The notes: generated from the sequence alone by a model not told the origin. Shown: positions 32,944 through 46,902, counted from the stretch's first letter. The stretch: DNA of 64,000 nt from a candidate division CSSED10-310 bacterium (GCA_016931515.1 JAFGEQ010000002.1:26278-90277), one strand, 5' to 3'. Numbers and translations are program-made.

Positions 32944-34734
32944 TCAACCCGGCTTTCCCGCGTAATACAATTGATGCAGACGAGGGTATATCCCATTTTG
33001 TTTCTTCAATAATTCGTCATGAGTTCCAGACTCTGCCAGATGTCCTTTATGGAAGACAAAAATCCTGTCTGCATTGCGAATAGTCGACAAGCGATGTGCC
33101 ACAACCAGTGCCGTCCTGCCTTTTAGAATCTTCTCTGTTGCGATCTGGATGACGGATTCGGTTACAGTGTCTATGTTTGACGTTGCTTCATCAAGAATCA
33201 CAATCTGGGGATTGAAGCTTATTGTACGCATAAATGAGACGAGCTGCTTCTGACCCGCTGATAGTCGCCGGCCTCCTTCACCCACTTCCGTCGCAAACTT
33301 CCTGCTCATCCGGTTGATGAATGTCGCCAAACCGCTCTGTTCCGCAATCCTTTCCAACTCCATATCGGAAATCCCCTGCCGACCGACCCGGATATTGTCT
33401 GCTATTGACCCGTTAAAAATAAACGCGTCCTGGTGAATCAACCCCAAGAATCCCCGAAGCACATTGAGCGGTATTTTTCGGATATCAGTGCCATCCAATC
33501 GGATAACACCCCGGACCGGATCATAAAACCTACATAACAGGTTCGTCAGAGTCGTTTTACCCGCTCCAGTAGCCCCCACAACAGCGATACTCTCTCCAGG
33601 GTGAATCACAAACGAGACATCTTTCATGACCCATTCTTCATTATTATAAGCAAACCAGACATTTTCGAATCGAATTTCCCCGACAATGGTCTCTGGGATT
33701 ACCGCATCATCTTCCAAAGGTTCTGAGACACCGGTCGACATATCCATTACCTGGAATATCCGCTCCGATGAAGCAAGTGCAGATTGGAGAATATTAATCT
33801 GTTGAGACATATCCTGAATCGGGCGGAAAAAACGCCTGGCATATTGAAAAAAGGCAACTAAAACGCCAACAGTGATGCCTCCTCCCTGGATCATAAAACC
33901 GCCATACTTCAAAAGCAGTACGATCGTGATTGCGCTCGTTATCTCCACTGTTGGGACAAAAAGAGCGAAGTAGAATACGGTTTGGAGATGTGCATTGAGT
34001 GTTTCCTGGTTAGCGCGATCGAATTGTTCACGAACTTTTAGATTATTGTTAAACAACTGGATAACATGTATTCCTCGGATATGTTCAGAGAGGAATCCGT
34101 TGAGTGCGGCAACTTTCGTCCGTACCGCTCGAAAACTGTCCCGAAATTTTTTCCTGAACAGGATGACATTCACTGCGAACAGAACCATGCTTAACAGGAC
34201 AAATATAGTGAGTCGGGTATTCAAGGAAAACATAATGACAACGATACCTATCAGTGTCATGGAGTCACCGATAAACTGAACAACACCGGAGGAAAACAGT
34301 TCGTTCAAGGTCTCAATATCTGATGTAAGGCGGGTGATGATCCAGCCTGTTGGAAATTTGTCAAAAAAGCGGATATCCAGCGATTGAATATGTTTAAACA
34401 GAGATTTACGGATATCATTCATGATTGATTGCCCAGTCAATGCCATCGTATAGATCTGGCTGAACATTGCGATAAAACTGCCGAGAATCGTCATCATATA
34501 TATTGCAGTCAATCGTAACAAACCGGAGTAATTCTTGTCTGCGATTGGACCATCGATTGCAGATTTTATAATGTATGGACCGGCGAGTTGAAGAGTGGAA
34601 AACGCCAGAAGACATATGAGAGCAAGGATTACTTGAAGCCAGTAGGGCTTAAGAAATCCGAAAATTCTTCCAGTCGTACTGAGATTGATCGTAAAATTTT
34701 CAGGTATCTCTGCTGCATGGTGCATTCTCGGCAT
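32944..34734 (-). CDS. ABC transporter permease/ATP-binding protein (type I exporter, MsbA-like), second subunit of a heterodimer
   Basis: Track ORF reaches 34776. An ATG at 34734 overlaps the upstream stop as TAATG. Six TM helices are followed by an NBD with Walker A GATGAGKTT, signature LSAGQKQL and Walker B ILDEATS. Confidence 0.8.
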   Translation of the reverse strand: MPRMHHAAEIPENFTINLSTTGRIFGFLKPYWLQVILALICLLAFSTLQLAGPYIIKSAIDGPIADKNYSGLLRLTAIYMMTILGSFIAMFSQIYTMALTGQSIMNDIRKSLFKHIQSLDIRFFDKFPTGWIITRLTSDIETLNELFSSGVVQFIGDSMTLIGIVVIMFSLNTRLTIFVLLSMVLFAVNVILFRKKFRDSFRAVRTKVAALNGFLSEHIRGIHVIQLFNNNLKVREQFDRANQETLNAHLQTVFYFALFVPTVEITSAITIVLLLKYGGFMIQGGGITVGVLVAFFQYARRFFRPIQDMSQQINILQSALASSERIFQVMDMSTGVSEPLEDDAVIPETIVGEIRFENVWFAYNNEEWVMKDVSFVIHPGESIAVVGATGAGKTTLTNLLCRFYDPVRGVIRLDGTDIRKIPLNVLRGFLGLIHQDAFIFNGSIADNIRVGRQGISDMELERIAEQSGLATFINRMSRKFATEVGEGGRRLSAGQKQLVSFMRTISFNPQIVILDEATSNIDTVTESVIQIATEKILKGRTALVVAHRLSTIRNADRIFVFHKGHLAESGTHDELLKKQNGIYPRLHQLYYAGKPG

Positions 34735-36491
34735 TAAAAAGACTCCAATTGAGATAGTAGATCCTGACGCCGGCAAAGGTCCGCATAATATCCATTCGCA
34801 GCAACCAGTGTGTCATGATCACCATCTTCGCTAATCCCGCCGTCCTCCAAAATTAAAATCCGGTCAGCTCGCCGTGCTGTATTCATTCTGTGGGAAATGA
34901 TAATCGTCGTCTTCTTTCCTTTAATTTGTAGAAGCTTATTAAGGATTGCCTCTTCAGTCGCTATGTCAACGCTTGAAAACGGATCATCCAGAAGAAGGAG
35001 ATCTGAGTCGCGAAGGAGCATTCGAGCAAGTGTCAGGCGTTGCTTCTGACCCCCCGATAAATTTATCCCCCGTTCACCGAGGTGTGTCTCCAACTGATCC
35101 GGGAATTCCATGAATTCCTGGTCCAAATTCGCGATCTCAAGCGCATTCATAAGAACGGTCGGATCTGACGATCTGGCTCCGAAAAACAGATTGTTGGCAA
35201 TCGAGTCAGAAAAAACAACGATGTTTTGCGGCATTATTCCAACATATTCTCGAATAGGATATTCCGGTAACGAATCGGTTGGATATCCATTAATTGATAC
35301 TGTCCCTGAAGTGGGAAGGTAGCTTCGTGTGATCAGATTCATGAGGGTTGTTTTTCCTGATCCCGATGCTCCCATGACTGCCACTGTTTCCCCCTGTTTG
35401 ATTGAAAAATTGGTTTTTTCCAGAACATAGGGTTGATCAGGACAGTATTTGAAGCAGACATCTTTGAACTCGATATCACCTCTGAACTGATGAACAGGAA
35501 TGTAATCATCCCCCGGCAGCATACCCAGGCATGGTTTTTCTTCAAAGATTGACTGGATTCTTTGCATGGCAGCAGATCCCTGCTGAATCAGACCGACAAC
35601 CCAGCCGACAGCAAAGAGAGGCCATGAGAGGATTGCCAGGTATTCAAGAAAGGCAACCATACTCCCAATGGTAATCCGTCCGGAGATAACCCACCATCCA
35701 CAGAAGAGCAGAATGACGCTCGTAGAAATGCCTGTAAGAAGTGTCATCAGCGGCGTAAACAAACCCTGGAAGCGAACCAGATTTAAATTTTTCCGGACAT
35801 AATTGTCACTCATCGCGTTTAACTTCTCGCATTCCACTGATTCAAGGTTATAGGCCTTAACAATCCGAATCCCGGTCAGATTTTCCTGTACACAGGATGT
35901 GATTTCAGCAAGCTGCTCCTGAACCTGTTCGGAGTGGAATCGGATCTTCCTGCCCATGAAGTAAAACATGACCGGCATCAAAGGAAGAGGGATTAAGGAC
36001 AGCAGTGTCAGCCGGATATCGATGACCAGCATAAAACTCAATGCAAAAATCAAGGAAACGATAGTGTTTCCTATTTGCATCAACGCAGGACCCAATATCA
36101 TTCGAACTCGGAGAATATCATTAGTCATCCTTGATAGGATGTCACCGCTTGAAACACGATCATAATAGGATCGGGGCAGTATTAGAACATGCTCAAAAAT
36201 CTTCTGTCTCAAGTCTCCTTCAACATGCCGGCTGACACCAATAATCAACCATCTCATGAGAAATCGAAATATGCAGACACTGATGGTTACACTCAGAATG
36301 GCCAGAATATACAGTCCGATTCTGGCTTTAAAATGGTCACTGCCCAAATCATCAACTGCCATCTTCATAATCCACGGCTGGATCATCATCAGACTCGAGG
36401 AGCAGAGGAGGCAGAGCAATCCCAACGTGAGTGTTTTAGAATAAGGTTTCCAGTAAGGTGCCAGTATGTTATGAAGGCGTTTTAATGTCAT
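34734..36491 (-). CDS. ABC transporter permease/ATP-binding protein (type I exporter), first subunit of a heterodimer
   Basis: 585 aa; TMD then NBD with Walker A GASGSGKTT, signature LSGGQKQR and Walker B LLLDDPFSS. Confidence 0.8.
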   Translation of the reverse strand: MTLKRLHNILAPYWKPYSKTLTLGLLCLLCSSSLMMIQPWIMKMAVDDLGSDHFKARIGLYILAILSVTISVCIFRFLMRWLIIGVSRHVEGDLRQKIFEHVLILPRSYYDRVSSGDILSRMTNDILRVRMILGPALMQIGNTIVSLIFALSFMLVIDIRLTLLSLIPLPLMPVMFYFMGRKIRFHSEQVQEQLAEITSCVQENLTGIRIVKAYNLESVECEKLNAMSDNYVRKNLNLVRFQGLFTPLMTLLTGISTSVILLFCGWWVISGRITIGSMVAFLEYLAILSWPLFAVGWVVGLIQQGSAAMQRIQSIFEEKPCLGMLPGDDYIPVHQFRGDIEFKDVCFKYCPDQPYVLEKTNFSIKQGETVAVMGASGSGKTTLMNLITRSYLPTSGTVSINGYPTDSLPEYPIREYVGIMPQNIVVFSDSIANNLFFGARSSDPTVLMNALEIANLDQEFMEFPDQLETHLGERGINLSGGQKQRLTLARMLLRDSDLLLLDDPFSSVDIATEEAILNKLLQIKGKKTTIIISHRMNTARRADRILILEDGGISEDGDHDTLVAANGYYADLCRRQDLLSQLESF

Positions 36492-36640: not shown

Positions 36641-36675
36641 TTACATTTTATTTCAAGATTTTTACATTTTGTAAA
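36641..36675. promoter_or_regulatory. Direct repeat TTACATTTT (x2, 21 bp apart) with embedded palindrome TTTACA-ttt-TGTAAA in the divergent promoter region upstream of the 1711-aa regulator gene
   Basis: Read directly in the 235-bp intergenic region between the ABC exporter (-) and the giant gene (+); the two-helical-turn spacing suggests a dimeric regulator site. Confidence 0.3.
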
Positions 36676-36725
36676 ATTTTCTGGTATTCCTGTTAGGAAT
36701 TTCGTAAAATATCCGGTGGAAAAAG

Positions 36726-39700
36726 TTGGATTATCAGGCAAATCCAAACCAAAGGGATAACACGATGCATTTACCAAAAGAGTTACACGAAACCTACTCA
36801 ATTAGTGACGATCTGGGTGAAGATAGTCTGGGTAAATTATTAAGAGTAAAAAATAAAAGCAACGACACCATGCATCTCATGCGACTGATGCGAATATCAG
36901 GAAATGACCGGTTATTATCAGCTGAAATGAATTCCGACCTGGCACTATGGGCTGATCTCCATTATCATAGTGTCTCGTTTATCCGGGAGTTCTTGGATAT
37001 AAATGATTCTCACATTGCAGTAATTATGGATAACCGCCCCGGCATCAGACTAAGCACGGTGTGGAATGACATGCTACGCAAGGTTTCTGATGCAGATACA
37101 TTTATTCAAGAAATCGGTTCCGGGATTGAGTACATGCATCTGAATGGCATACGGCATTTATTCGTAAACCCGGACACGATACTTATCGACACAAGGGACG
37201 GCTCACGAGCTTTCTATCTGACCGATTGCGGACTGCTTGAGTTTCTTGAATGGACCACCCGATTTAATCTTCCAAAACCTGATGATTTTCCGGCTCTTGA
37301 ATTCATGAGCCCTGAGTTTGTTTCAGGGGAGCGATCAGATCTCAGAAGCGATCTCTACTCGTTCGGTACGGTCATATATCAACTTCTCACTGGTATCAAT
37401 CCGTTTCAATCAGACACTGCTACAGCAACAATTTCGGCTCATCTGAACCGGTTGATTAACCAACCCAAAGATTTAAACAGCGAAATCTCCGATAAATTGA
37501 ATATGTCAGTCATGAAGCTTCTCGAGAAAAACCCCGGATATCGACCCAGTAGTCTGATTAAGCATTTCGGTATTACATTTGAATCTGATGACTCTCAGGA
37601 AGTGCATTATTCCCTCTTGAATTCCTATTCTATTGATCATCCGCTTCCATTACAGGAGATCCGTTCAGCATTCGAAAAAGCATGCAATGGATCAGGGAGT
37701 GTTCTGGTGCTTGTTGGCGATACCGGGATCGGAAAAAGTCGTCTGCTGGAGGGAGTTGAATCTGAATTTCGGCTTTCAGGCGTAAACCCGATAATTATAC
37801 AGGCTTTCCCCAATTCGGATACTGAATGCGGATGCGGTGTCCTACGATCCGTTTTCAAAGCATTACACCATTTTTATCCAAAGCTGGAACCGGACGTCAT
37901 CGATCAGATGTATCCTCCTGATTTTGAAAAAAACTATCTTCAAATCTCAGATGCACTCTTTCAAGAGGCTGTTTTGCAGAGCTGTGCCAGACATATTTTG
38001 AAAGCTATTTTCGACAGGATTCAAGGAGATCAAGCGGTTCCTTGTGTTGTGATTCTCAAAGACTGCTTTTTCTCGGACAGTATTTTCTGGGGGTTTTTCC
38101 GCACGCTGGCACGACTGTTATCTGAGAAGGCCATTGGAAATGTTCCTTGTCTTTGGCTTGTCGAGACCCGGGATATTGAATCCGGTTTCATTAGAGTAAA
38201 AGGCAATGACGCCATTAAGCCGATTGAACTGGTTACATGTAATCGAGAAACCGTAATTAAAATCCTGGCTTCAGGTTTTGGTTTGGAATCAGTTCCAGAG
38301 ATGTTGACTGATTGGGTGATGGAGTTATCTGAAGGGAATTTCCAGACCATTGATCAGATGATAACAATGCTGCGTTACACCGGCATCCTTTCCCTGAAAG
38401 ATGATATCTATACAATAAACGATAATACATGGCATACGGTAAGAACTCATTGCAAAGATCTGAATCAGTTTACAGATTATGTAATCGATCATTACATGAC
38501 TCCTCCCATGCGTCTCGTTCTGACCCATTTATCTTTATGGCCGCATGGATGCTCACTGATCAATTTATCCCTGACAATGGACCTGGACACCTCAACCCGT
38601 AAGTTTTTTCATTGGTTGCTTTTTTCCGAATGGGTACGGAAGACAAGAGTGGAAGGGTCGTTCATCTACAAGATTCGATATCCTGTTCTACAGGAACGAT
38701 TTCTCAGAGCAACACCCGATTACCAGAAATCCAGATGGCATCAACGAATTGCCGATCAACTGTGTGACCGGCAGGGAGCTCTATCAACCATAGTCGCTGA
38801 GCATTATTTCAGCGCCGATAATCGTCTCCATGGATGCGAACATGCTTTGTCGGCTGCGATGCATTATCGTGACCGGCAATGTCTGGAAAAATCCCGGTTC
38901 TGGTTCACACGGATCCTTGAGAGCATGCCCGAGCGCAATCGAACTAAAATAACCCAGATAAGCTTTGAATATGCCAAGGTCTTGATAGCCGACAAGGACT
39001 TTTCCAAAGCACACGTGACGCTGTCTCAGGCGGAATCATTCCTCGAGTCACGATTCCATCATAAACGCGACAAAGCAGATTACCTCCTCCTTCGCGGCAT
39101 ATGCAGCTTCCATCTTGAAGATAACAATCAGGCTGTTTCATTCTTACTGGATGCTCTGAAAATGTTACCTCGAACAACTGCTCATGAATACCGGCTGAAG
39201 ATTCTTTTCTTTTTGGCACAAATTTGCGAAAAACTAAATGATTTTGAAGGACTTATCGTCCATTTCACAAATCTTCAGAAGTTACTTCCGCTGCGGAATT
39301 ATCCTTTTTTCGCAGGTCGACTTTTGGGTATTGTTGAACGGGCGTACCAGGAACTGCAGCAATACACAACCGCAGAATTTTACTTGAAAGAATCGATTCT
39401 TTTCGGCGAAACCACTGGTGATCATATATTTTTGTTAAACCAAAACCTTCGTTTGGGCCAGATTTATGAGCGGACAGGAAAATATCGTCTGGCAAGTGAA
39501 TCTTACGACCGCGTGATAAGACTGAGTAGAAAATACGTTCATTCTCGGTTGTTATGTGATGGCTTATGCCATCTGGCCAATCTGCACATGCTGTACAGTC
39601 AACAGGAACTTGCCCAAGGATTGCTGGCTGAAGCACTTCAATTATCTGAGAAGCTAAATGAACAACGTCTCTATGTCTGGAGCAGCTTTTTGCTATCCTC

Positions 39701-41861
39701 CGTTTTTATTCAGAAGGGTTTGCTTGATGAAGCGAATAGTATTCTGAGTGCTTTGATACCGGGAACCCTTGTTGGAATCGAGATAACGCTGATAGGAAGA
39801 ATCTACCTGAACAAAGCTAGAATTGCAGAACGCAGGGGACAATTTTACCTGATGCTTCAACTGTTCACTGAGCTATTGAGTCAAGTACGGATCCAGAATC
39901 AAAGAATACTTACAGCTTTTTCACACCTGTATATCGCTCGCGTACACACACTTCTTGAGCAGTTGCCGCAAGCAAAATCAGCACTCGGCGAAGCCCGGAA
40001 AATTTTAGATAACTCTGACCTGTCTATTCCGGACTGCAACATCCTCGAAGCCACTATATATCTCATGCAGCACAATCCGAAAAAAGCCAGGAAATTGGCT
40101 ATGGAAGCCATAGATCAATCGAAAGAGAAGAACCTCATTCATCAACAGGCGGAAGCATCTCGGGTTTTGGGATTAATTGACCAGGCGGAAAATAATCAGG
40201 AAGGTGCGATCCTTCATTTTCAGACTGCACTGGCTTATTTTATATCTGATCAGGAGGAGTTTGAAGCGGCTCATATTCACCGTTTATTAGCGAAGGCTTA
40301 TTCTTTTTTATCCAAGCATGACCTTGCGAAGCAGGAAGACCAAGCTGCAGATGCCTTATTCAAAAAGTTATCTGCTTTCTACTATCTATCCGGTGATGCT
40401 GGTACGGAAAGCCCTCGACAAGAGAACGAACATCCGGATGTTATTGCTTCAATTTCTTCCGGCCTAGTCGTTCATCTCCTTCAATCCCTGTATTCGTTTG
40501 AAGCAGCTTGCAGTGCGATTCTTCATATCGTCTTACAGAGCGGTGGTTTTGATCAGGGCGCTGTCTTTCAGACCGGAAGCGGATCTGCCAATCTGTCTTT
40601 GATCGCTGACATATCAATGACAGCAGATGATCAGAAAACAGCACAAAAGCTTTGTAAAGCATGGATTCAAGAGTGTAACACTATACTGCCGGTATGTCGG
40701 ATGGAAGACAGTGCTTTGTTTCCGGATCAAGCTTCCGTGACGCAGGTGTGTTACTTGCCTGTTTTGATGGATAAATCTCTCGTGGCCATCATGTTTCTGA
40801 CGAGCAGGGATCCGATTCTTAAAAAGCGAGTTCGCTTATTCTCGGAACTTATTTCTATCGCATTCGAGATTATTCGAGACTTGGAAACAGCTCATATCAA
40901 TATAGATCACGAGGTGCCGGAGTCCAGAGTTCATTCATCAAAGCTGGTCGCAGAATCTGCTGAGATGAGCAGGATTAAAGTGGCACTTTATTCAATCGCA
41001 GCCTCCAAACTGCCTGTGCTGATCACAGGAGAAAGTGGTACTGGAAAGTCATTTCTTGCAGAATATATTCATAGGATAGCTTATCAAGGCAGGACAGCAC
41101 CAGCAGTAATTCAATGCAGTACGCTCAATTCTTCTTCCAAATCACAGGCACTTACCAGTGTGATAGATGGCATGCTTGCGACGGGATTTTCGACAACAAT
41201 AACCAGTAAAACCGTTATCATTGAAGATATTGATTTATTATCCTTAACGCAGCAGATGGAGCTGATTCCTATCTTACAACCCGATAGACGATATCCACTG
41301 CTACAGACAAATTTGCGATTTATTTTCACTACTGCCTGCAACATCAGGCAGTCCGTCCAGGAGAGCTCATTTTCCGAAGAGCTTTATCGACTGATCGCGG
41401 AAATTCAACTTAAAATGCCGAATCTTGCGAGCCGAAAAGAGGATATTCCTCAATTAGCCAGGGTATTCTTAGAAGAAGCCGTCGAATTAACACATAAAAA
41501 GTTTACATATTTTCATCCCGACACCCTGGATGCGTTGATGTCATATCCGTGGCCGGCTAATGTGATCGAGTTAAAGCATGCCCTTGAGACGGCGGTGCTT
41601 TTTGGTACACCTCCGGAGATCCATGTTCGGGATTTACCCAAAGAGATTCGATCTTACCTTGAGCGAGCTGGCATAATGGGTATTGATACACCGGTTTTGC
41701 GAAGTATTGAAGATATTGAAGAAGCGCACATTCGATCGATTCTTCATGGCACAAAGGGCAACAAGTTGCGAGCTTGCGAATTACTGGGAATTTCCAGACC
41801 CACGCTGGATCGAAAACTAGAAAAATTTGGCATCATCATTTCGAAAAAAAGGAAACGCTGA
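36726..41861 (+). CDS. Giant multi-domain regulator: degenerate Ser/Thr-kinase-like domain, P-loop (STAND/AAA-like) NTPase, TPR-like repeats, GAF-like domain, sigma-54-interaction AAA+ domain and C-terminal Fis-type HTH
   Basis: 1711 aa. The track start is a TTG; an alternative ATG lies 13 codons in. Kinase-fold motifs in residues ~20-285: catalytic loop IRHLFVNPDTILID, DCG in place of DFG, MSPE in place of APE, subdomain IX SDLYSFGTVIYQLLTG. P-loop VLVLVGDTGIGKSRLLEGV at ~aa 326. Sigma-54 AAA+ domain from ~aa 1400: Walker A GESGTGKS, second region of homology RFIFTT, SRKEDIP, WPANVIELKHALE. C-terminal HTH LRACELLGISRPTLDRKLEKFGI. Confidence 0.8.
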   Translation: MDYQANPNQRDNTMHLPKELHETYSISDDLGEDSLGKLLRVKNKSNDTMHLMRLMRISGNDRLLSAEMNSDLALWADLHYHSVSFIREFLDINDSHIAVIMDNRPGIRLSTVWNDMLRKVSDADTFIQEIGSGIEYMHLNGIRHLFVNPDTILIDTRDGSRAFYLTDCGLLEFLEWTTRFNLPKPDDFPALEFMSPEFVSGERSDLRSDLYSFGTVIYQLLTGINPFQSDTATATISAHLNRLINQPKDLNSEISDKLNMSVMKLLEKNPGYRPSSLIKHFGITFESDDSQEVHYSLLNSYSIDHPLPLQEIRSAFEKACNGSGSVLVLVGDTGIGKSRLLEGVESEFRLSGVNPIIIQAFPNSDTECGCGVLRSVFKALHHFYPKLEPDVIDQMYPPDFEKNYLQISDALFQEAVLQSCARHILKAIFDRIQGDQAVPCVVILKDCFFSDSIFWGFFRTLARLLSEKAIGNVPCLWLVETRDIESGFIRVKGNDAIKPIELVTCNRETVIKILASGFGLESVPEMLTDWVMELSEGNFQTIDQMITMLRYTGILSLKDDIYTINDNTWHTVRTHCKDLNQFTDYVIDHYMTPPMRLVLTHLSLWPHGCSLINLSLTMDLDTSTRKFFHWLLFSEWVRKTRVEGSFIYKIRYPVLQERFLRATPDYQKSRWHQRIADQLCDRQGALSTIVAEHYFSADNRLHGCEHALSAAMHYRDRQCLEKSRFWFTRILESMPERNRTKITQISFEYAKVLIADKDFSKAHVTLSQAESFLESRFHHKRDKADYLLLRGICSFHLEDNNQAVSFLLDALKMLPRTTAHEYRLKILFFLAQICEKLNDFEGLIVHFTNLQKLLPLRNYPFFAGRLLGIVERAYQELQQYTTAEFYLKESILFGETTGDHIFLLNQNLRLGQIYERTGKYRLASESYDRVIRLSRKYVHSRLLCDGLCHLANLHMLYSQQELAQGLLAEALQLSEKLNEQRLYVWSSFLLSSVFIQKGLLDEANSILSALIPGTLVGIEITLIGRIYLNKARIAERRGQFYLMLQLFTELLSQVRIQNQRILTAFSHLYIARVHTLLEQLPQAKSALGEARKILDNSDLSIPDCNILEATIYLMQHNPKKARKLAMEAIDQSKEKNLIHQQAEASRVLGLIDQAENNQEGAILHFQTALAYFISDQEEFEAAHIHRLLAKAYSFLSKHDLAKQEDQAADALFKKLSAFYYLSGDAGTESPRQENEHPDVIASISSGLVVHLLQSLYSFEAACSAILHIVLQSGGFDQGAVFQTGSGSANLSLIADISMTADDQKTAQKLCKAWIQECNTILPVCRMEDSALFPDQASVTQVCYLPVLMDKSLVAIMFLTSRDPILKKRVRLFSELISIAFEIIRDLETAHINIDHEVPESRVHSSKLVAESAEMSRIKVALYSIAASKLPVLITGESGTGKSFLAEYIHRIAYQGRTAPAVIQCSTLNSSSKSQALTSVIDGMLATGFSTTITSKTVIIEDIDLLSLTQQMELIPILQPDRRYPLLQTNLRFIFTTACNIRQSVQESSFSEELYRLIAEIQLKMPNLASRKEDIPQLARVFLEEAVELTHKKFTYFHPDTLDALMSYPWPANVIELKHALETAVLFGTPPEIHVRDLPKEIRSYLERAGIMGIDTPVLRSIEDIEEAHIRSILHGTKGNKLRACELLGISRPTLDRKLEKFGIIISKKRKR

Positions 41862-41936
41862 TTCCTTGACGTTTTGGAGAGCAAGACCTATGATCGTGAG
41901 GGATAGTGGTAGTGAGACCTGGTGGGACATAGATCA

Positions 41937-42776
41937 ATGAAAGTCACAGCATATGGGGCAACCGATTTGGGGATGCGGCGACCTGTTAATGAGGACAGTT
42001 TCCGGCTTTGTCCTGCTGTCCAGCTTTTCCTTGTGGCAGATGGGATGGGAGGCCACGCTGCTGGTCATGTGGCAAGCCGTATGGCGGTGAACGAAGTTGC
42101 GGAATTTATTGAATCGCACCTTTTGGGTGGAACTGATGATCGGGACGATGATTCGGATTATACTCAAATTCTAGTTGAGGCACTTCAAGCTGCCAATCAG
42201 TATATTATTACCGCAACACATCACCGAAAAGATCTCCGGGGAATGGGAACAACTCTAGTTGTAGTCTTGATTCGAGGAAGAAAACTATATGCTGCCAGTG
42301 TCGGAGACAGCCGGCTGTATTTAATTCGCCAGGAAGAAGTGAAACTGCTCACAACCGATCACTCGTGGGTTAATATGCAGGTGCAACTGGGCAATATGAC
42401 GTCGGAGGAATCACGGCTTCACCCGATGAGAAATGTAATCACTCGAGCGTTGGGAACACAATTACAGGTAGAAGTCGATACTCTTGTTCAGTTGCTCGAG
42501 GCGGGTGACTGCTTGGTTATGTGTACCGATGGTTTAAGCAATATGTTGAGTGATAAAGAGATTGCACTGAGTGTACTTCATCATGAGACTGATTTGAAGC
42601 AAGCAGTGGAAGAATTAATCCAACGTGCAAACATGCGGGGTGGGGATGACAATATCACCACTGTCGTTTTGAAAATCCAGGATGATATTGAATCCAATGA
42701 GCATTACGCTCAAGATACTGAAGTTATGTTTATACGTCCTATCAAACCCGGGAAAAACTCAACGGAACAGGATTGA
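41937..42776 (+). CDS. PP2C-family Ser/Thr protein phosphatase (Stp1/PrpC-like)
   Basis: Track ORF 41922..42776 with the likely ATG at ~41937 (MKVTAYGATDLGMRRPVNEDSF); metal-binding motifs LVADGMGGHAAG and DGLSNMLSD, and a DDNITTVV-like C-terminal block. Confidence 0.8.
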   Translation: MKVTAYGATDLGMRRPVNEDSFRLCPAVQLFLVADGMGGHAAGHVASRMAVNEVAEFIESHLLGGTDDRDDDSDYTQILVEALQAANQYIITATHHRKDLRGMGTTLVVVLIRGRKLYAASVGDSRLYLIRQEEVKLLTTDHSWVNMQVQLGNMTSEESRLHPMRNVITRALGTQLQVEVDTLVQLLEAGDCLVMCTDGLSNMLSDKEIALSVLHHETDLKQAVEELIQRANMRGGDDNITTVVLKIQDDIESNEHYAQDTEVMFIRPIKPGKNSTEQD

Positions 42777-43720
42777 TAATGATACGTTACCTTGTCACCG
42801 GAGCTGCCGGATTTATCGGTTCGCATCTGGTTGAATCACTTCTGACTTTACCGAATACCGAAATTATTGCGATTGATAATCTTATCACGGGCAATCTGAA
42901 CAATTTGAAACATCTGTTAAATCGCATTCATTTCATTCAAGACGATATCACCCATCCGGATGTTTTAAAGGAACTGATGGAGAACATTGATTTCGTCCTG
43001 CATCAGGCAGCTCTTCCATCCGTTCCACGATCCATTTCAGATCCTGATGCATGTAACAGACATAACATTACCGGAACTTTGCAAGTATTAATCGCAGCTC
43101 GTGATGCCAGGGTCAAGCGAGTCATATTTGCGTCATCTTCATCAGTCTATGGCTCAGATATCACTCTGCCTAAGCATGAATCGCTACCAACAATTCCCAA
43201 ATCACCCTATGCGTTAACAAAACTAACTGGAGAGCATTACTGCAGAATCTTTTATGAAGCCTATGGGCTTGAAACTGTTGCATTACGTTACTTCAATGTC
43301 TTTGGACCTCGGCAAAATGTGGCCTCGCAGTATTCCGCCGTCATCCCTCAGTTTATTTCGCATTTGCTTGCCGGAACTCCACCGGAAATCCATGGAGATG
43401 GAACACAATCTCGCGATTTCACATATATATCGAATATTGTTATGGCGAATCTGCAGGCGTGTACGGCGCCCGGGATAGCTGGCCAGGTGTTCAATGTCGG
43501 TTGTGGTTCGCATATTTCAATCAATGATCTTTATTCGATTATTGCCGATGAGATTGGCTCAGATCTGGAACCAATATATACACCACCCAGGATCGGAGAC
43601 GTCCGACATTCCTGCGCGGATATTACGAAAGCCCGCAATTTGATTGGATATGATCCAAGCGTAAGTGTTCGTGAAGGCTTGGCAATAACTGTCGATCATT
43701 ATGCAAACGTGTTCCGATAA
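42773..43720 (+). CDS. NAD-dependent epimerase/dehydratase (UDP-hexose or UDP-GlcNAc 4-epimerase, WbpP/Gne-like)
   Basis: 315 aa; Rossmann motif VTGAAGFIGSHLVESLL; catalytic YxxxK (YALTK); ATGA overlap with the PP2C stop. Confidence 0.75.
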   Translation: MIMIRYLVTGAAGFIGSHLVESLLTLPNTEIIAIDNLITGNLNNLKHLLNRIHFIQDDITHPDVLKELMENIDFVLHQAALPSVPRSISDPDACNRHNITGTLQVLIAARDARVKRVIFASSSSVYGSDITLPKHESLPTIPKSPYALTKLTGEHYCRIFYEAYGLETVALRYFNVFGPRQNVASQYSAVIPQFISHLLAGTPPEIHGDGTQSRDFTYISNIVMANLQACTAPGIAGQVFNVGCGSHISINDLYSIIADEIGSDLEPIYTPPRIGDVRHSCADITKARNLIGYDPSVSVREGLAITVDHYANVFR

Positions 43721-43725
43721 AGAGA

Positions 43726-45984
43726 ATGAGATCGAACTATCGATTTTTATATTTTGCTCCCTTACTGATCTGCATAATATTCAATGGATGCAGTGTCGAT
43801 CAGAGTGGGCAGGAAACGCAACCTGCGATTCGAGATTTAGTGGAGTCTTTTGATCCGTCCTGGTTGAACAGTGACCGGGAACGTTTTGTTTTCCACGATT
43901 TTCTGAATAAAAAACACCATTTGGGCAGCGGTTGGGAATTCGACGAAAACCAGGCCGAAACGCGTTTCCCCTGGCCTAGATTCACAATGGCCAGTGGCAT
44001 AATAGTATTGGATTGGAATCACCGAATGGAGCGTCGAATTACATTAAAACTGCTCAACATTGCATCAGATTACCCACCAGATATCATCGGCTTAAGCGTT
44101 AATGGCCAGGCTGTTCCTCTTATGGAAGATCACCTGCCATGCGGTGAATATGAGTTTTATGTTCCCTCATCCGTCCAAAAAACCGGGATCAATGAACTTC
44201 ATGTCAGTTTGAATCGTGACCGACTACCGCCTGATTTTGATATTCATTCGATTGGTTTGCACTCCATTCGTATTACGCTGGGAGCGGTTGTAAGAAATTC
44301 GATTCAAATAGGTGACCAAGTTCGAAGCAGTTTGCTTTTTGCTCCTCCGGTTGGGTTACGAATTCCCTATCAATCTGCCAAAAAACAGAATTTGCAATTC
44401 AGTTATGGATTATTCTCCTCTAACGAAAACAAGAACAAGTTTGTCTACTCATTAGAAGTGGCAATTTTTGAAAAAAATGGAGATCGTCCCGTTCTCGAAA
44501 GACGATTCCCTATCATTCGCAATCAGGAAACTTGTAGCAATTGGCAATTTGTAAAACAAAAGCTGCCCGTTATGGCAGATCAGGGAATACTGGAAATTAC
44601 ATTCTCTGCCGACGAGGAAATTACCGGACCAATCGATTATCTGGCACTCAGTGAAATTCTCATCGTTCCTGCGAATCAGAAAGGGGATCATGATACCAAT
44701 CTGATTCAACCCGATATCATATTGACAACACTCTCATCCGTGGCAGCCAGACAGTTAGGATCTTACGGTAACGCTTGTGCCAGAACACCGTTTTTAGATC
44801 GTTTTTCCCAACATGGATTAATTTTTATCGACGTCACATCAGCAAGCAACGGCGAAGTTCCCTCATTGTTATCAATTGCGACTGGAAAGTTGCCTCGCGA
44901 TCATGGCGCTTACCGAACTAATTCAATTACGAAGGATTTTCCATATATATTTGGAGATTTATTGACTGAGACGGATTATCAAAGTCACGCATTCGCGTTT
45001 ACAAATTCCGCAACCCAATCTGTTCTCTCTCGTCTTCCCGGTTTTAAACGCGTGTATTTCTCAAATCCCTCAAAGGATAGTCTGCAGAGCATCCGCGCGC
45101 AGTTAAACAGCATGCTGACATCACCCCACATCATTGCCCAACCTGGTTTTTTCTGGTTTCATTTCGCTCCCGAGACAGTCACCCCTGGGATGATAGATGG
45201 CATGTTCGACCTGACTGTATATAATAAAAACCATTTGCCAATCTCCGATCTGAATATTCCTCTCTCAGAGCAGGATCGTTTGTTCTCTCTTTCCCAAAAA
45301 ATTAACGCCAATGGGGATGTTCGTTCCCTATTAGGAAGCAACGACTATCGGTTGACGAATCTCGACAAAACTGTTTCGTCGGTTGTTCGTGACATAATAG
45401 ACCAACGATCATCAAGAGATGTCTCTATGATTGTTACGTCGGACAGCGGGATCATTCGAAGCTTGAATTCGAACGTTCTATCGAATGATTCTCTATCCCA
45501 GGAAGTTCTCCATGTCCCGTTAATCTGGAACGAGATCAGGAGCAATTCAGATCAGACTGAATACAGAAAGGGGATTGTCTCAACGGCCATAAGTAATCTG
45601 AAAATTTGTGAAATGATGGGGAAGCTCATGCGCAATGGTGATCTTAAAAGCATTTCTTGGAATGGATCTCCAGGATCAACAATCCGACCCATAATCGCCG
45701 AACATGATACACGTCCAATAATTGCATATCGAAAAGAGGAATTTAAGATGATTCACTGCTTGTCAAACCCATATTATCAAATCGCAACCACAAACCTGTT
45801 CAATCTGGATACCGACCCGGGAGAATCCATCAATTTAGCCGGGAGAGACCCTGAGTATACACAGCAATTTCTTGATCCTGTGTTGGCATTCTGCCGTGGA
45901 AGTTCTTTCTATCCGAGCCCACGAATGGGTTTGGAAGAAGAAACTCAAGCTATTCTGCAATCACTTAAATACACCGTCCAATGA
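43726..45984 (+). CDS. Lipoprotein with C-terminal sulfatase-like (alkaline-phosphatase superfamily) domain lacking the canonical CxPxR catalytic motif
   Basis: 752 aa; signal peptide and lipobox (FNGC). The region DIILTTLSSVAARQLGSYGNACARTPFLDRFSQHGLIF...GEVPSLLSIATGKLPRDHG aligns to the sulfatase N-terminal metal-binding and CxPSR...GRYP region, but the Cys/Ser and Arg are replaced. Confidence 0.45.
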   Translation: MRSNYRFLYFAPLLICIIFNGCSVDQSGQETQPAIRDLVESFDPSWLNSDRERFVFHDFLNKKHHLGSGWEFDENQAETRFPWPRFTMASGIIVLDWNHRMERRITLKLLNIASDYPPDIIGLSVNGQAVPLMEDHLPCGEYEFYVPSSVQKTGINELHVSLNRDRLPPDFDIHSIGLHSIRITLGAVVRNSIQIGDQVRSSLLFAPPVGLRIPYQSAKKQNLQFSYGLFSSNENKNKFVYSLEVAIFEKNGDRPVLERRFPIIRNQETCSNWQFVKQKLPVMADQGILEITFSADEEITGPIDYLALSEILIVPANQKGDHDTNLIQPDIILTTLSSVAARQLGSYGNACARTPFLDRFSQHGLIFIDVTSASNGEVPSLLSIATGKLPRDHGAYRTNSITKDFPYIFGDLLTETDYQSHAFAFTNSATQSVLSRLPGFKRVYFSNPSKDSLQSIRAQLNSMLTSPHIIAQPGFFWFHFAPETVTPGMIDGMFDLTVYNKNHLPISDLNIPLSEQDRLFSLSQKINANGDVRSLLGSNDYRLTNLDKTVSSVVRDIIDQRSSRDVSMIVTSDSGIIRSLNSNVLSNDSLSQEVLHVPLIWNEIRSNSDQTEYRKGIVSTAISNLKICEMMGKLMRNGDLKSISWNGSPGSTIRPIIAEHDTRPIIAYRKEEFKMIHCLSNPYYQIATTNLFNLDTDPGESINLAGRDPEYTQQFLDPVLAFCRGSSFYPSPRMGLEEETQAILQSLKYTVQ

Positions 45985-46147: not shown

Positions 46148-46426
46148 ATGCACGACCAATTAACTGTAACTCAAGTCGGGTTTGTTTTTTTGTGTTTTTC
46201 GATAATCGCTTTTACAGCGTATATGAGGATTCTAATGTATCTCAACGCATTGGATGCCGGATTGGAAAATCCACCTGAAAGACCACACATGGGAGAAAAG
46301 CTACAGGCGTATAAAGCTTTCTGTGCGGAACGTGGGCGAAGACCCGTATTACTTTATATTTTCGCTGTTGGTGCGATCGGGGCGGTAATTTTCTGGCTGC
46401 CACTTCCGTGGTTGCTACTTCGATAA
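46148..46426 (+). CDS. Small two-TM membrane protein (hypothetical)
   Basis: 92 aa with two hydrophobic helices; ends 6 nt before the FHA gene start, so co-transcription is plausible. Confidence 0.3.
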   Translation: MHDQLTVTQVGFVFLCFSIIAFTAYMRILMYLNALDAGLENPPERPHMGEKLQAYKAFCAERGRRPVLLYIFAVGAIGAVIFWLPLPWLLLR

Positions 46427-46431
46427 AAATA

Positions 46432-46902
46432 ATGAATTTATCAGAAAAAGGCACACCGGTTCTTGAAGTTTACGATAGAGATACTCTGCTCGCTCGCATC
46501 CCGTTCATTCAGAAAGGCAAAAACTATCGCCTGGGAAGAGATCCATCGAATGATCTTGTGATTAGTCACGAACAGGTATCGCGATTTCATCTGTCGATAT
46601 ATCGCGGTTGGGATGATGTTCTTACGATCAGGGACACGGGTAGCCGGAATGGAGTCATTTTGAATGGGAAGCGTGTCTCCGGCCCATTTGAAGTCAGATC
46701 TGACGATGACATCCGGATTGGTCAATTAAAATGCTTGATAAAAGGAATCAAAACAAACCCGATACATTGTTTGCAGGAAAATGCCCTTCATTCATCAGAA
46801 AAGTCAGACAGAATCCCGTATTGTAAAAATCCTATTATATTATTAATCATAAGTGGCTTGTTTTTGGTCTCAACCATTGTGTTGATTGTGTCGTTAATCT
46901 AG
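46432..46902 (+). CDS. FHA-domain protein with C-terminal transmembrane anchor
   Basis: Track ORF 46408..46902 (GTG) with an ATG at ~46432. FHA core YRLGRDPSNDLVISHEQVSRFHLSIY...RDTGSRNGVILNGKRV; C-terminal helix ILLIISGLFLVSTIVLIVSLI. Confidence 0.7.
   Translation: MNLSEKGTPVLEVYDRDTLLARIPFIQKGKNYRLGRDPSNDLVISHEQVSRFHLSIYRGWDDVLTIRDTGSRNGVILNGKRVSGPFEVRSDDDIRIGQLKCLIKGIKTNPIHCLQENALHSSEKSDRIPYCKNPIILLIISGLFLVSTIVLIVSLI

Follow-up and report, generated by a model that had tools for sequence, protein, structure and literature searches.

The window analysed here, a stretch of 64,000 nucleotides from a candidate division CSSED10-310 bacterium (GCA_016931515.1 JAFGEQ010000002.1:26278-90277), contains a fusion gene whose product would be a cytoplasmic multi-domain transcription regulator, built from a Hanks-kinase domain, a STAND nucleoside triphosphatase (NTPase), a tetratricopeptide repeat (TPR) sensor, a divergent GAF-like domain, the AAA+ module of a bacterial enhancer-binding protein (bEBP) and a Fis-type helix-turn-helix (HTH). 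With moderate confidence, we favour that this protein is a pseudokinase/pseudo-bEBP transcription factor, which would bind DNA and work without sigma-54. A sigma-54-independent switch is proposed because the kinase end and the sigma-54-activator end have both lost key catalytic and contact motifs. The gene itself is real and is a member of a family of giant bacterial regulators that is small and apparently not described before.

Domain layout and motif losses of the fusion protein

An earlier note on this DNA had described kinase-like, STAND, TPR, GAF-like and sigma-54-activator domains fused in a single frame and followed by a PP2C phosphatase gene. This account proved correct for the set of domains, for the one reading frame and for the neighbouring PP2C gene. 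In the list of open reading frames (ORFs) of the window, one unbroken frame extends from 36726 to 41861 on the plus strand (1711 aa counted from TTG) and contains no internal stop. The true start is likely the ATG at 36765, which yields 1698 aa; the NCBI protein MBN1878535.1, automatically labelled 'sigma 54-interacting transcriptional regulator [candidate division CSSED10-310 bacterium]', has this same length, and Met1 is invariant across a seven-member family alignment. The Pfam search was run on the 1698-aa form, and residue numbers are counted from ATG 36765. Pkinase (PF00069) matched residues 11-262 with 74 bits (cut-off 31.7), AAA_16 (PF13191) matched from residue 296 with 49.9 bits (cut-off 32.6), TPR_12 reached 62 bits (cut-off 30.1) and HTH_8 (PF02954) covered residues 1648-1688 with 39 bits, while TPR_MalT, at residues 866-1074, scored 34.9 bits and stayed under its cut-off of 45. 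Residues 1395-1554 matched both Sigma54_activ_2 (PF14532, 72 bits) and Sigma54_activat (PF00158, 57.8 bits), and AAA_lid_14 was assigned to residues 1556-1630. As anticipated, the hidden Markov models of Pkinase and Sigma54_activat thus fell on one polypeptide. Single ORFs of about 1700 aa with the same layout were also present in unrelated assemblies (ENA, Logan and NCBI), as had been foreseen for other genomes. The fusion is not an assembly artefact, because independent assemblies carry these orthologs of about 1700 aa in identical gene order; together with the continuous ORF, this excluded both a frameshift and a misjoined assembly.

Titin and DAPK kinase structures matched the kinase-like domain at E 1e-16. 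However, alignments to titin kinase and to homologs revealed that its Gly-rich loop reads GEDSLG instead of GxGxxG, that the beta3 (VAIK) Lys is replaced by Arg (HLMRLM) and that the catalytic loop reads HLFVNPDT instead of HRDLKPxN, with the catalytic HRD Asp changed to Phe and the Mg-binding Asn to Thr. In addition, the 'GT' found ahead of the (A/S)PE motif in canonical relatives was lost, and DFG reads DCG. The kinase motifs quoted in the earlier note are therefore present, but in degenerate forms. By standard criteria, a domain without the VAIK Lys, the HRD Asp or the DFG Asp is a pseudokinase; on these residues, the kinase-like domain is predicted to be one, homologous to Hanks kinases but failing the tests that define them.

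A similar picture was obtained for the C-terminal module, which had been taken for a classical NtrC-type AAA+ domain with a Fis HTH. The domains were as described, the Walker A motif (GESGTGKS, with GxxGxGKS conserved) and the lid were kept, and the best NCBIfam and PDB matches were bEBPs (PrdR, DhaR, NtrC1 and ZraR). The classical character did not hold, however, since GAFTGA, the canonical Walker B and the Arg residues of FRxD and sensor II are lost. GAFTGA is the motif that contacts sigma-54. When aligned with NtrC1, ZraR and homologs, loop L1 showed a gap exactly at the GAFTGA position (6-8 residues, depending on the alignment), and loop L2 was short by 2-5 residues, again depending on the alignment. 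Specifically, Walker B reads VIIEDI (IIED) versus hFLDEI (hhhhDE), sensor I TTA versus ATN, the FRxD motif of the arginine-finger region FSEELY versus FREDLY (Arg to Ser) and sensor II ANVIELKH versus GNVRELEN (Arg to Ile). The module is thus predicted to be an AAA+ domain without the sigma-54-contacting L1 and L2 loops and without the residues for ATP hydrolysis, which is homologous to sigma-54 activators but fails their defining tests. The HTH, in contrast, is the most conserved part of the family; it is 75-89% identical to its counterparts in orthologs whose identity elsewhere is 32-40%.

Between both ends, the STAND NTPase keeps an intact Walker A (GDTGIGKS), while its Walker B reads VVILKD versus hhhhDD (LDD in relatives) and its GxP motif reads GNF. 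The replacement of the acidic pair by (K/R/E)(D/N), at query residues 426-436 (about 38040-38072 of the window), was found family-wide, canonical members included (ILKD, ILKN, ILEN and LFRD). Because all members are without the canonical Walker B acidic pair, this suggests a nucleotide-binding oligomerization domain (NOD) with poor or no hydrolysis as a family trait. The GAF-like region gave no Pfam GAF match at E<=0.01, but a comparison by hhalign of the clade profile with the GAF regions of relatives reached 94.4% probability (E 8.6e-8), and Pfam GAF is present at the equivalent position in the orthologs P0127 and P0129. An AlphaFold2 (AF2) model of residues 1177-1698 (mean pLDDT, a per-residue confidence measure, of 69.7) gave this region an alpha/beta layout with pLDDT values of 55-86.

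Family members in three states and the promoters beside them

A word-index protein search recovered relatives at 22-29% local identity, with the order Pkinase+AAA_16+(TPR)+GAF+Sigma54_activat(+HTH_8) in about 17 other proteins. These sit within a much larger kinase-AAA_16-GAF group whose outputs are His-kinase, GGDEF, cyclase, SpoIIE, STAS or HD-GYP domains. True orthologs were obtained with an exhaustive HMMER search using the middle region of the protein: P0122 (1702 aa, 40% identity to the query), P0123 (1696 aa, 36%) and P0125 (1700 aa, 32%), the incomplete sequences P0124, P0126 and P0130, and the more distant members P0127, P0128 and P0129 (24-28%). GTDB species genomes were scanned as well, with results covering the best 80 of 226 loci; this added L009-L018, L023 and L025, from uncultured lineages including CSSED10-310, WOR-3 and Stahlbacteria. 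L012, L017 and L018 are N-terminally incomplete and informed on the AAA+ and HTH states only.

The family members fell into three states. The degenerate state (window, P0122/L001, P0123/L002, P0125/L003=L010, L009=L011 and L012) combines the L1 deletion of the AAA+ module, found in all, with beta3 Lys to Arg, catalytic-loop Asn to Thr and a GxDxxG Gly-rich loop in every member whose kinase region is covered. The HRD Asp varies within this clade: P0123, P0125 and the fragment P0130 have it, the window protein and P0122 do not. In the intermediate state (P0128/L007=L016 and L017), the kinase reads HLDLNPEN, without beta3 Lys and with NAG for DFG, and the AAA+ module has GTGRD at Walker A and 'SG--TEY' at L1. 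The canonical state (P0127/L004, P0129/L005=L014, L013, L015, L018, L023 and L025) keeps HxDLKPEN, the beta3 Lys and DFG in the kinase, and GAFT(D/G)A, FLDE, ATNRD, FREDxYYRL and GNVRELEN in the AAA+ module. Canonical members resemble the window protein in length, in the arrangement of domains, in the HTH and in the unusual Walker B of the STAND domain, and L004 and L018 also in the PP2C neighbour. Two metagenome-assembled genomes (MAGs) carried a canonical, peptide-linked copy together with an intermediate, degenerate-type copy linked to PP2C: binchicken_co20_385 (L013 and L017) and SRR3330210_bin.56 (L014 and L016). Since both copies occur in these MAGs, the canonical and intermediate states are paralogs able to coexist in one genome.

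Identities of the query to P0122, P0123 and P0125 were 89/75/83% in the HTH, 55/47/53% in the AAA lid, 41/36/30% in the AAA+ core, 45/43/31% in the TPR region, 36/34/32% in the STAND domain, 32/29/32% in the kinase-like domain and 22/14/16% in the GAF-like region, the least conserved domain. Canonical and degenerate clades do not differ in their recognition helix, RPTLDRKLEK. The degenerate state has been kept in at least six distinct lineages that are only 32-40% identical, with gene order unchanged, which suggests that purifying selection has acted on a role that is not catalytic and has DNA binding at its centre. A non-functional relic with eroding domains could also account for several catalytic motifs being lost at once across three nucleotide-using domains, and for the poor conservation of the GAF-like region. 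However, the 5.1-kb ORF is free of stops here and in at least six other lineages diverged to that extent, the beta3 Arg and the Thr for the catalytic-loop Asn are specific, clade-wide substitutions, the HTH is conserved, and so are the gene order and the downstream promoter, which makes a relic highly improbable. An intact ORF, clade-specific substitutions and a near-invariant HTH across diverged lineages argue that the gene is not a pseudogene and that its product would have a DNA-binding function needing no catalysis.

The promoters beside the gene also differed between states. The earlier note had looked to -24/-12 promoters near the cluster; none was found, and what lies ahead of the PP2C operon is a conserved candidate promoter of the -35/-10 type. 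With TGGCAC-N5-TTGC and up to one mismatch as criterion for a sigma-54 promoter, the window contained 4 one-mismatch matches versus 3.8 expected, that is, chance level, and none lay in the intergenic regions of the cluster. Similarly, the degenerate and intermediate loci had no match within the 700 nt scanned past the stop codon. The -35/-10 element TTGACG-17-TATGAT of the window was found at the same position in all eight degenerate-clade loci, where the others read TTGAC(G/C)-17-TAT(G/T)AT, and the three intermediate loci all carry TTGACC-17-TATGCT 39-42 nt past the stop. In contrast, five of seven distinct canonical lineages (L004; L005 with L013 and L014; L018; L025; and the distant L008) presented a TGGCAC-N5-TTGC match on the coding strand, 198-284 nt past the stop, against none of eight distinct degenerate or intermediate lineages (Fisher p about 0.007). 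In all these lineages except L008, the match is followed by a conserved small ORF that encodes a signal peptide and then VPAFADP..IP.PP..PPP. This unannotated ORF of about 52-69 codons would produce a secreted proline-rich peptide with a hydrophobic tail, possibly a secreted signal. L015 carries the peptide gene with no sigma-54 match even at two mismatches, and a six-frame profile search detected no peptide homolog in the window or in the degenerate loci. In L008 (13124-14928), the locus of the distant canonical homolog P0006, the sole sigma-54-type match in 20.8 kb lies before a 67-aa ORF, unrelated to the proline-rich peptide, and a gene for a 493-aa radical-SAM (S-adenosylmethionine) enzyme. 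These two genes look like a pair of the RiPP type (ribosomally synthesized and post-translationally modified peptide) under a kinase-bEBP regulator. In both L004 and L018, PP2C comes after the promoter and the peptide gene; this arrangement is likely ancestral, and GAFTGA would then have disappeared from the degenerate clade at the same time as the sigma-54 promoter and the peptide gene.

These results bear on the reading closest to the earlier note, in which an active Ser/Thr kinase autophosphorylates, PP2C opposes it, and both control an active bEBP that drives sigma-54-dependent neighbouring genes. Significant Pkinase and Sigma54_activat matches in one polypeptide beside a PP2C gene are what this reading expects, and canonical relatives of the same architecture keep all motifs, most of them with adjacent sigma-54-type promoters. 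Furthermore, sigma-54 is probably present in the CSSED10-310 lineage, because L018, from another MAG of this division, keeps a GAFTDA-bearing member. In the window protein, however, the beta3 Lys, the HRD Asp, the catalytic-loop Asn and the Gly-rich loop are all non-canonical, GAFTGA is deleted with L2 cut back, and Walker B and the FRxD and sensor-II Arg residues are lost; the intergenic regions of the cluster carry no -24/-12 element, and the candidate promoter conserved before PP2C is a -35/-10 one. We consider an active kinase-bEBP very unlikely here. The proposed direct link from Ser/Thr phospho-signalling to enhancer-dependent transcription is inapplicable to the window copy because its kinase, sigma-54-contact and hydrolysis motifs are lost and no -24/-12 promoter accompanies it. 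That link fits, as far as motifs and promoters can tell, the canonical relatives P0127, P0129, L018 and L025, which keep the motifs and mostly have a sigma-54-type promoter beside the gene.

As for binding sites, a 17-bp dyad, TGTAA-N7-TT(A/G)CA, lies beside the stop codon in four canonical lineages (L004, L018, L023 and L025), upstream of the sigma-54-type promoter where one was found, and it is a plausible enhancer for the invariant HTH of the family. An operator common to both clades was rejected, as the dyad is absent from the degenerate intergenic regions and only a box with a TGTAA half-site is conserved upstream of the fusion gene. The core of this box, TTTGTAA(A/T/C)AT..TGCT, is located about 95 nt ahead of the ATG. 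Between TTG 36726 and ATG 36765, and thus likely in the 5' leader, lies an inverted repeat, TTGGAT(TAT)...ATCCAA (36726-36750); its L001 counterpart is a perfect 9-bp repeat (TTGGATTAT CAGA ATAATCCAA), and it could be a hairpin or an operator. In the window, two perfect TGTAA-N7-TTACA palindromes were present, at 38480-38496 (TGTAATCGATCATTACA) and 51324-51340 (TGTAATGATTCATTACA), against 0.23 expected on both strands. The former lies within the fusion gene and the latter over the start of the FlhB-like gene, and neither occurs in the orthologous loci. The excess of palindromes, the shared recognition helix and the two MAGs that pair a canonical with an intermediate member would all suit a decoy or partner of a canonical paralog, which would compete for enhancer sites or form poisoned mixed rings and so damp sigma-54-dependent expression, without itself controlling sigma-70 promoters. 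Nevertheless, no canonical paralog was found, among the best 80 of 226 loci, in the MAGs carrying the fully degenerate clade, neither palindrome falls in a promoter region common to orthologous loci, and the tight, conserved linkage of the gene to its own operon, predicted to be sigma-70-driven, suggests a local role. We regard a decoy as unlikely, and the sigma-54-independent transcription factor is retained as the preferred reading.

Gene neighbourhood and proposed mode of action

The features of the window and the sites found in related loci are collected in Table 1. The gene after the fusion gene had been recognised as a PP2C Ser/Thr phosphatase, and NCBIfam NF033484 supported this with 257 bits (curated cut-off 230). 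Its metal-binding motifs are complete (RxxNED, DGMGGH, GDSR, TDGL and GGDDN), and in 13 of 20 family loci such a gene follows the fusion gene. No other kinase gene is encoded in the window. The sulfatase-like domain of the 752-aa lipoprotein is a weak match; its gene would always be co-transcribed with the PP2C and TviC-like epimerase genes, and the lipoprotein may modify an envelope polysaccharide. Synteny of the FHA gene is limited to the degenerate clade. Beyond it, at 46918-51336 on the minus strand, lie FlhA-like (FHIPEP) and FlhB-like export-gate genes with a TPR protein and an unassigned 204-aa ORF between them, and no other flagellar or injectisome genes were found within the 64-kb window. 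The FHA protein may belong with this export apparatus and not with the kinase/PP2C module, because it is adjacent and matches the profile of the YscD cytoplasmic domain.

Table 1. Coordinates of the features in the window and of the sites in related loci
Feature	Sequence	Coordinates	Strand	Remarks
Two MsbA-like ABC exporter genes	Window	32944..36491	-	Divergent from fusion gene; syntenic in degenerate clade
Conserved box upstream of fusion gene	Window	36662..36710	+	TTTGTAAAATTTTCTGG; TGTAA half-site, dyad ATTTTGTAAAAT, second copy ATTTCGTAAAAT
Fusion gene	Window	36765..41861	+	1698 aa from ATG (likely start); mechanical ORF start TTG 36726
Kinase-like (predicted pseudokinase) domain, residues 8-265	Window	36786..37559	+	Pfam Pkinase; titin kinase and homolog alignments
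STAND-type NTPase (NOD), residues 296-560	Window	37650..38444	+	AAA_16 49.9 bits; alignments
Helical arm and TPR sensor region, residues 561-1190	Window	38445..40334	+	TPR_12; TPR_MalT below cut-off
Divergent GAF-like domain, residues about 1236-1385	Window	40470..40919	+	hhalign; AF2 layout
bEBP-type AAA+ core and lid, residues 1395-1632	Window	40947..41660	+	Pfam; NtrC1/ZraR structure alignments; homologs
Fis-type HTH (HTH_8) and basic KKRKR tail, residues 1646-1698	Window	41700..41858	+	HTH_8 39 bits
Candidate sigma-70-type promoter TTGACG-17-TATGAT	Window	41866..41894	+	Begins 5 nt past fusion-gene stop; precedes PP2C-epimerase-lipoprotein genes
PP2C Ser/Thr phosphatase, Stp1/IreP type	Window	41937..42776	+	Likely ATG start; mechanical ORF from GTG 41922
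NAD-dependent sugar-nucleotide epimerase (TviC-like)	Window	42773..43720	+	Start overlaps PP2C stop by 4 nt
752-aa predicted lipoprotein, sulfatase/alkaline-phosphatase-type domain	Window	43726..45984	+	Pfam Sulfatase 45.7 bits; signal and Cys LLICIIFNGC
92-aa ORF, both ends hydrophobic	Window	46148..46426	+	92-93-aa ORFs at same spot upstream of FHA gene in L001-L003
FHA-domain protein, hydrophobic C-terminal tail (likely membrane anchor)	Window	46432..46902	+	Pfam FHA 62 bits; Yop-YscD_cpl 48 bits
Sigma-54-type promoter and peptide gene	L004	7408-7697
Sigma-54-type promoter and peptide gene	L005	15453-15738
Sigma-54-type promoter and peptide gene	L013	6408-6692
Sigma-54-type promoter and peptide gene	L018	1754-2051
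Sigma-54-type promoter and peptide gene	L025	5326-5533
Peptide gene without promoter match	L015	11437-11640
Dyad TGTAA-N7-TT(A/G)CA	L025	5070, 5190, 5222
Dyad TGTAA-N7-TT(A/G)CA	L023	5889, 10967, 11030
Dyad TGTAA-N7-TT(A/G)CA	L004	7219
Dyad TGTAA-N7-TT(A/G)CA	L018	1567

The gene order of the window is shared by L001-L003. Upstream, it comprises an electron transfer flavoprotein (ETF), a CCG/Fe-S protein, a TPR protein and the two divergent MsbA-like ABC exporters; then come the fusion gene, PP2C, the epimerase, the sulfatase-like lipoprotein of about 750 aa, the 92-aa hydrophobic ORF and the FHA protein; downstream, on the minus strand, FlhA, the TPR protein and FlhB. L002 is exceptional: two additional genes separate its ABC exporters from the fusion gene, and OmpA and VWA genes come after the sulfatase-like gene. 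The PP2C-epimerase-sulfatase series also follows the intermediate P0128 and the canonical P0127, and PP2C follows the canonical L018. PADLOC models for PD-T4-6 kinases, MADS6 and the RtcR-type CARF-AAA-HTH proteins matched parts of the fusion protein, as they would for a STAND/kinase-type anti-phage defence protein (Avs-like or PD-T4-6-like). This reading was rejected because the matches are domain-level and generic, reflecting the kinase fold and the bEBP AAA+ with its HTH; neither a nuclease or other effector domain nor the surroundings of a defence island were seen, and the chromosomal order with envelope-sugar and ABC-exporter genes is kept across distant lineages. We give a defence function hardly any credence.

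Under the preferred reading, a signal-dependent oligomer would bind DNA through the HTH and, like TyrR, VpsR or Rhodobacter NtrC, activate or repress sigma-70 promoters independently of sigma-54. Its oligomerisation would be set by the STAND/TPR switch, following MalT logic, and by a nucleotide-binding AAA+ ring that would not remodel RNA polymerase. The regulator would probably target the promoter of its own gene, that of the divergent ABC exporters and/or the envelope-sugar operon headed by PP2C. Its pseudokinase domain would have a docking or allosteric role, and PP2C would remove phosphoryl groups added by a kinase whose gene lies elsewhere. Canonical members differ in combining an active-looking kinase with a GAFTGA-bearing AAA+; most of them are followed by a sigma-54-type promoter with the gene of the predicted secreted peptide, and some by the PP2C operon.

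Several observations weigh against this proposal. The kinase-like domain retains the DFG Asp, some kinases relocate their catalytic residues, and the loss of canonical residues predicts but does not prove lost catalysis. An intact PP2C gene stays tightly linked to a predicted dead kinase. TTGACG-17-TATGAT is a candidate sigma-70-type promoter for the PP2C-epimerase-lipoprotein genes by consensus and conservation alone. The dyad TGTAA-N7-TT(A/G)CA is not in the intergenic regions of the degenerate loci, no binding site for the clade emerged, and the box conserved ahead of the fusion gene, which may be a promoter or an operator, is perhaps no more than a promoter.

Comparison with known regulators and meaning for the family

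PknK and MalT have been grouped in one STAND subfamily (PMC4381067). The window protein is like PknK of M. tuberculosis in its Hanks kinase domain, and like PknK and MalT in its AAA_16 STAND NTPase and MalT-like TPR sensor, so that the logic expected is a signal-dependent nucleotide switch with multimerisation. However, PknK is an active kinase with no DNA-binding or bEBP module, whereas the kinase of the window protein is predicted dead; MalT ends in a LuxR-type HTH and the window protein in a GAF-like region, a bEBP AAA+ and a Fis HTH; and the STAND Walker B reads K-D in place of the D-D of the PknK/MalT type. Dual STYK-GAF-HisK proteins have been described (PMC1262709). The cyanobacterial HstK-type dual Ser/Thr-His kinases, and the variants with GGDEF, cyclase, SpoIIE, STAS or HD-GYP domains, share the N-terminal Pkinase-AAA_16-(TPR)-GAF chassis, and several of these kinase-AAA_16-GAF relatives also have degenerate kinase motifs. 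Their output modules differ, as the window protein carries a bEBP AAA+ and an HTH instead of a HisK, GGDEF, cyclase or similar domain. The 2005 survey of kinase architectures (PMC1262709) contains no occurrence of sigma, NtrC or AAA and leaves the kinase-bEBP combination unmentioned. Similarly, no description of a kinase-bEBP fusion was found in the literature searched, in which the key myxobacterial kinome paper was not covered. Sorangium and myxobacterial kinome papers reportedly mention kinases fused to sigma-54 modules, which serves as a lead and not as evidence.

The GAF-regulated bEBPs (NifA, NorR, FhlA and PexR) show the order of GAF, AAA+ and Fis-type HTH that is also predicted for the window protein. 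They keep GAFTGA, the Walker B DE and the arginine fingers, and activate sigma-54 promoters (PMC12754779). Unlike them, the window protein is without these three features. The closest functional analogy is provided by bEBP homologs without GAFTGA, among them TyrR, which acts with sigma-70. R. capsulatus NtrC, VpsR, Caulobacter NtrC and NtrX, also without GAFTGA, act at sigma-70 promoters (bioRxiv 10.1101/2023.06.06.543975). In these regulators, an L1 deletion likewise removes GAFTGA and the HTH is kept, and V. cholerae VpsR (PDB 7v2b) was among the structural-sequence matches of the AAA+ module. They are, however, response regulators or ACT/PAS proteins, with lengths of 450-520 aa, whereas the window protein has a pseudokinase-STAND-TPR-GAF input of 1390 residues; in addition, its Walker B, arginine finger and sensor II are degenerate. 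NCBIfam models did not place it in the orthologous groups of these GAFTGA-less regulators, with scores far below the cut-offs.

Tentatively, and with somewhat less than even confidence, we propose that the members of this apparently undescribed family ancestrally used a Hanks kinase/PP2C pair and a STAND switch to gate a sigma-54-dependent secreted peptide, possibly a signal, and that the window lineage is a doubly dead pseudoenzyme factor rewired to sigma-70. If true, the lineage would offer a clean case, found in nature, in which a bEBP and a kinase jointly became pseudoenzymes, with the sigma-54 target lost along with them. The family indicates that one polypeptide can combine a Hanks kinase and a STAND switch with a GAF domain and a bEBP, a fusion that has arisen repeatedly in uncultured phyla, and domain matches alone ('Pkinase + Sigma54_activat') would mis-assign the function of the window protein. 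For canonical relatives, the enhancer dyads in four lineages and the -24/-12 promoter with its peptide target in most provide testable predictions. In the degenerate lineages, kinase catalysis (as predicted), the sigma-54 contact surface, the sigma-54-type promoter and its target gene would have been lost in a coordinated manner, while the HTH, PP2C and gene order were preserved. The family could thus be a natural model for the conversion of enhancer-dependent activators into sigma-70 regulators, as well as for the roles of bacterial pseudokinases.

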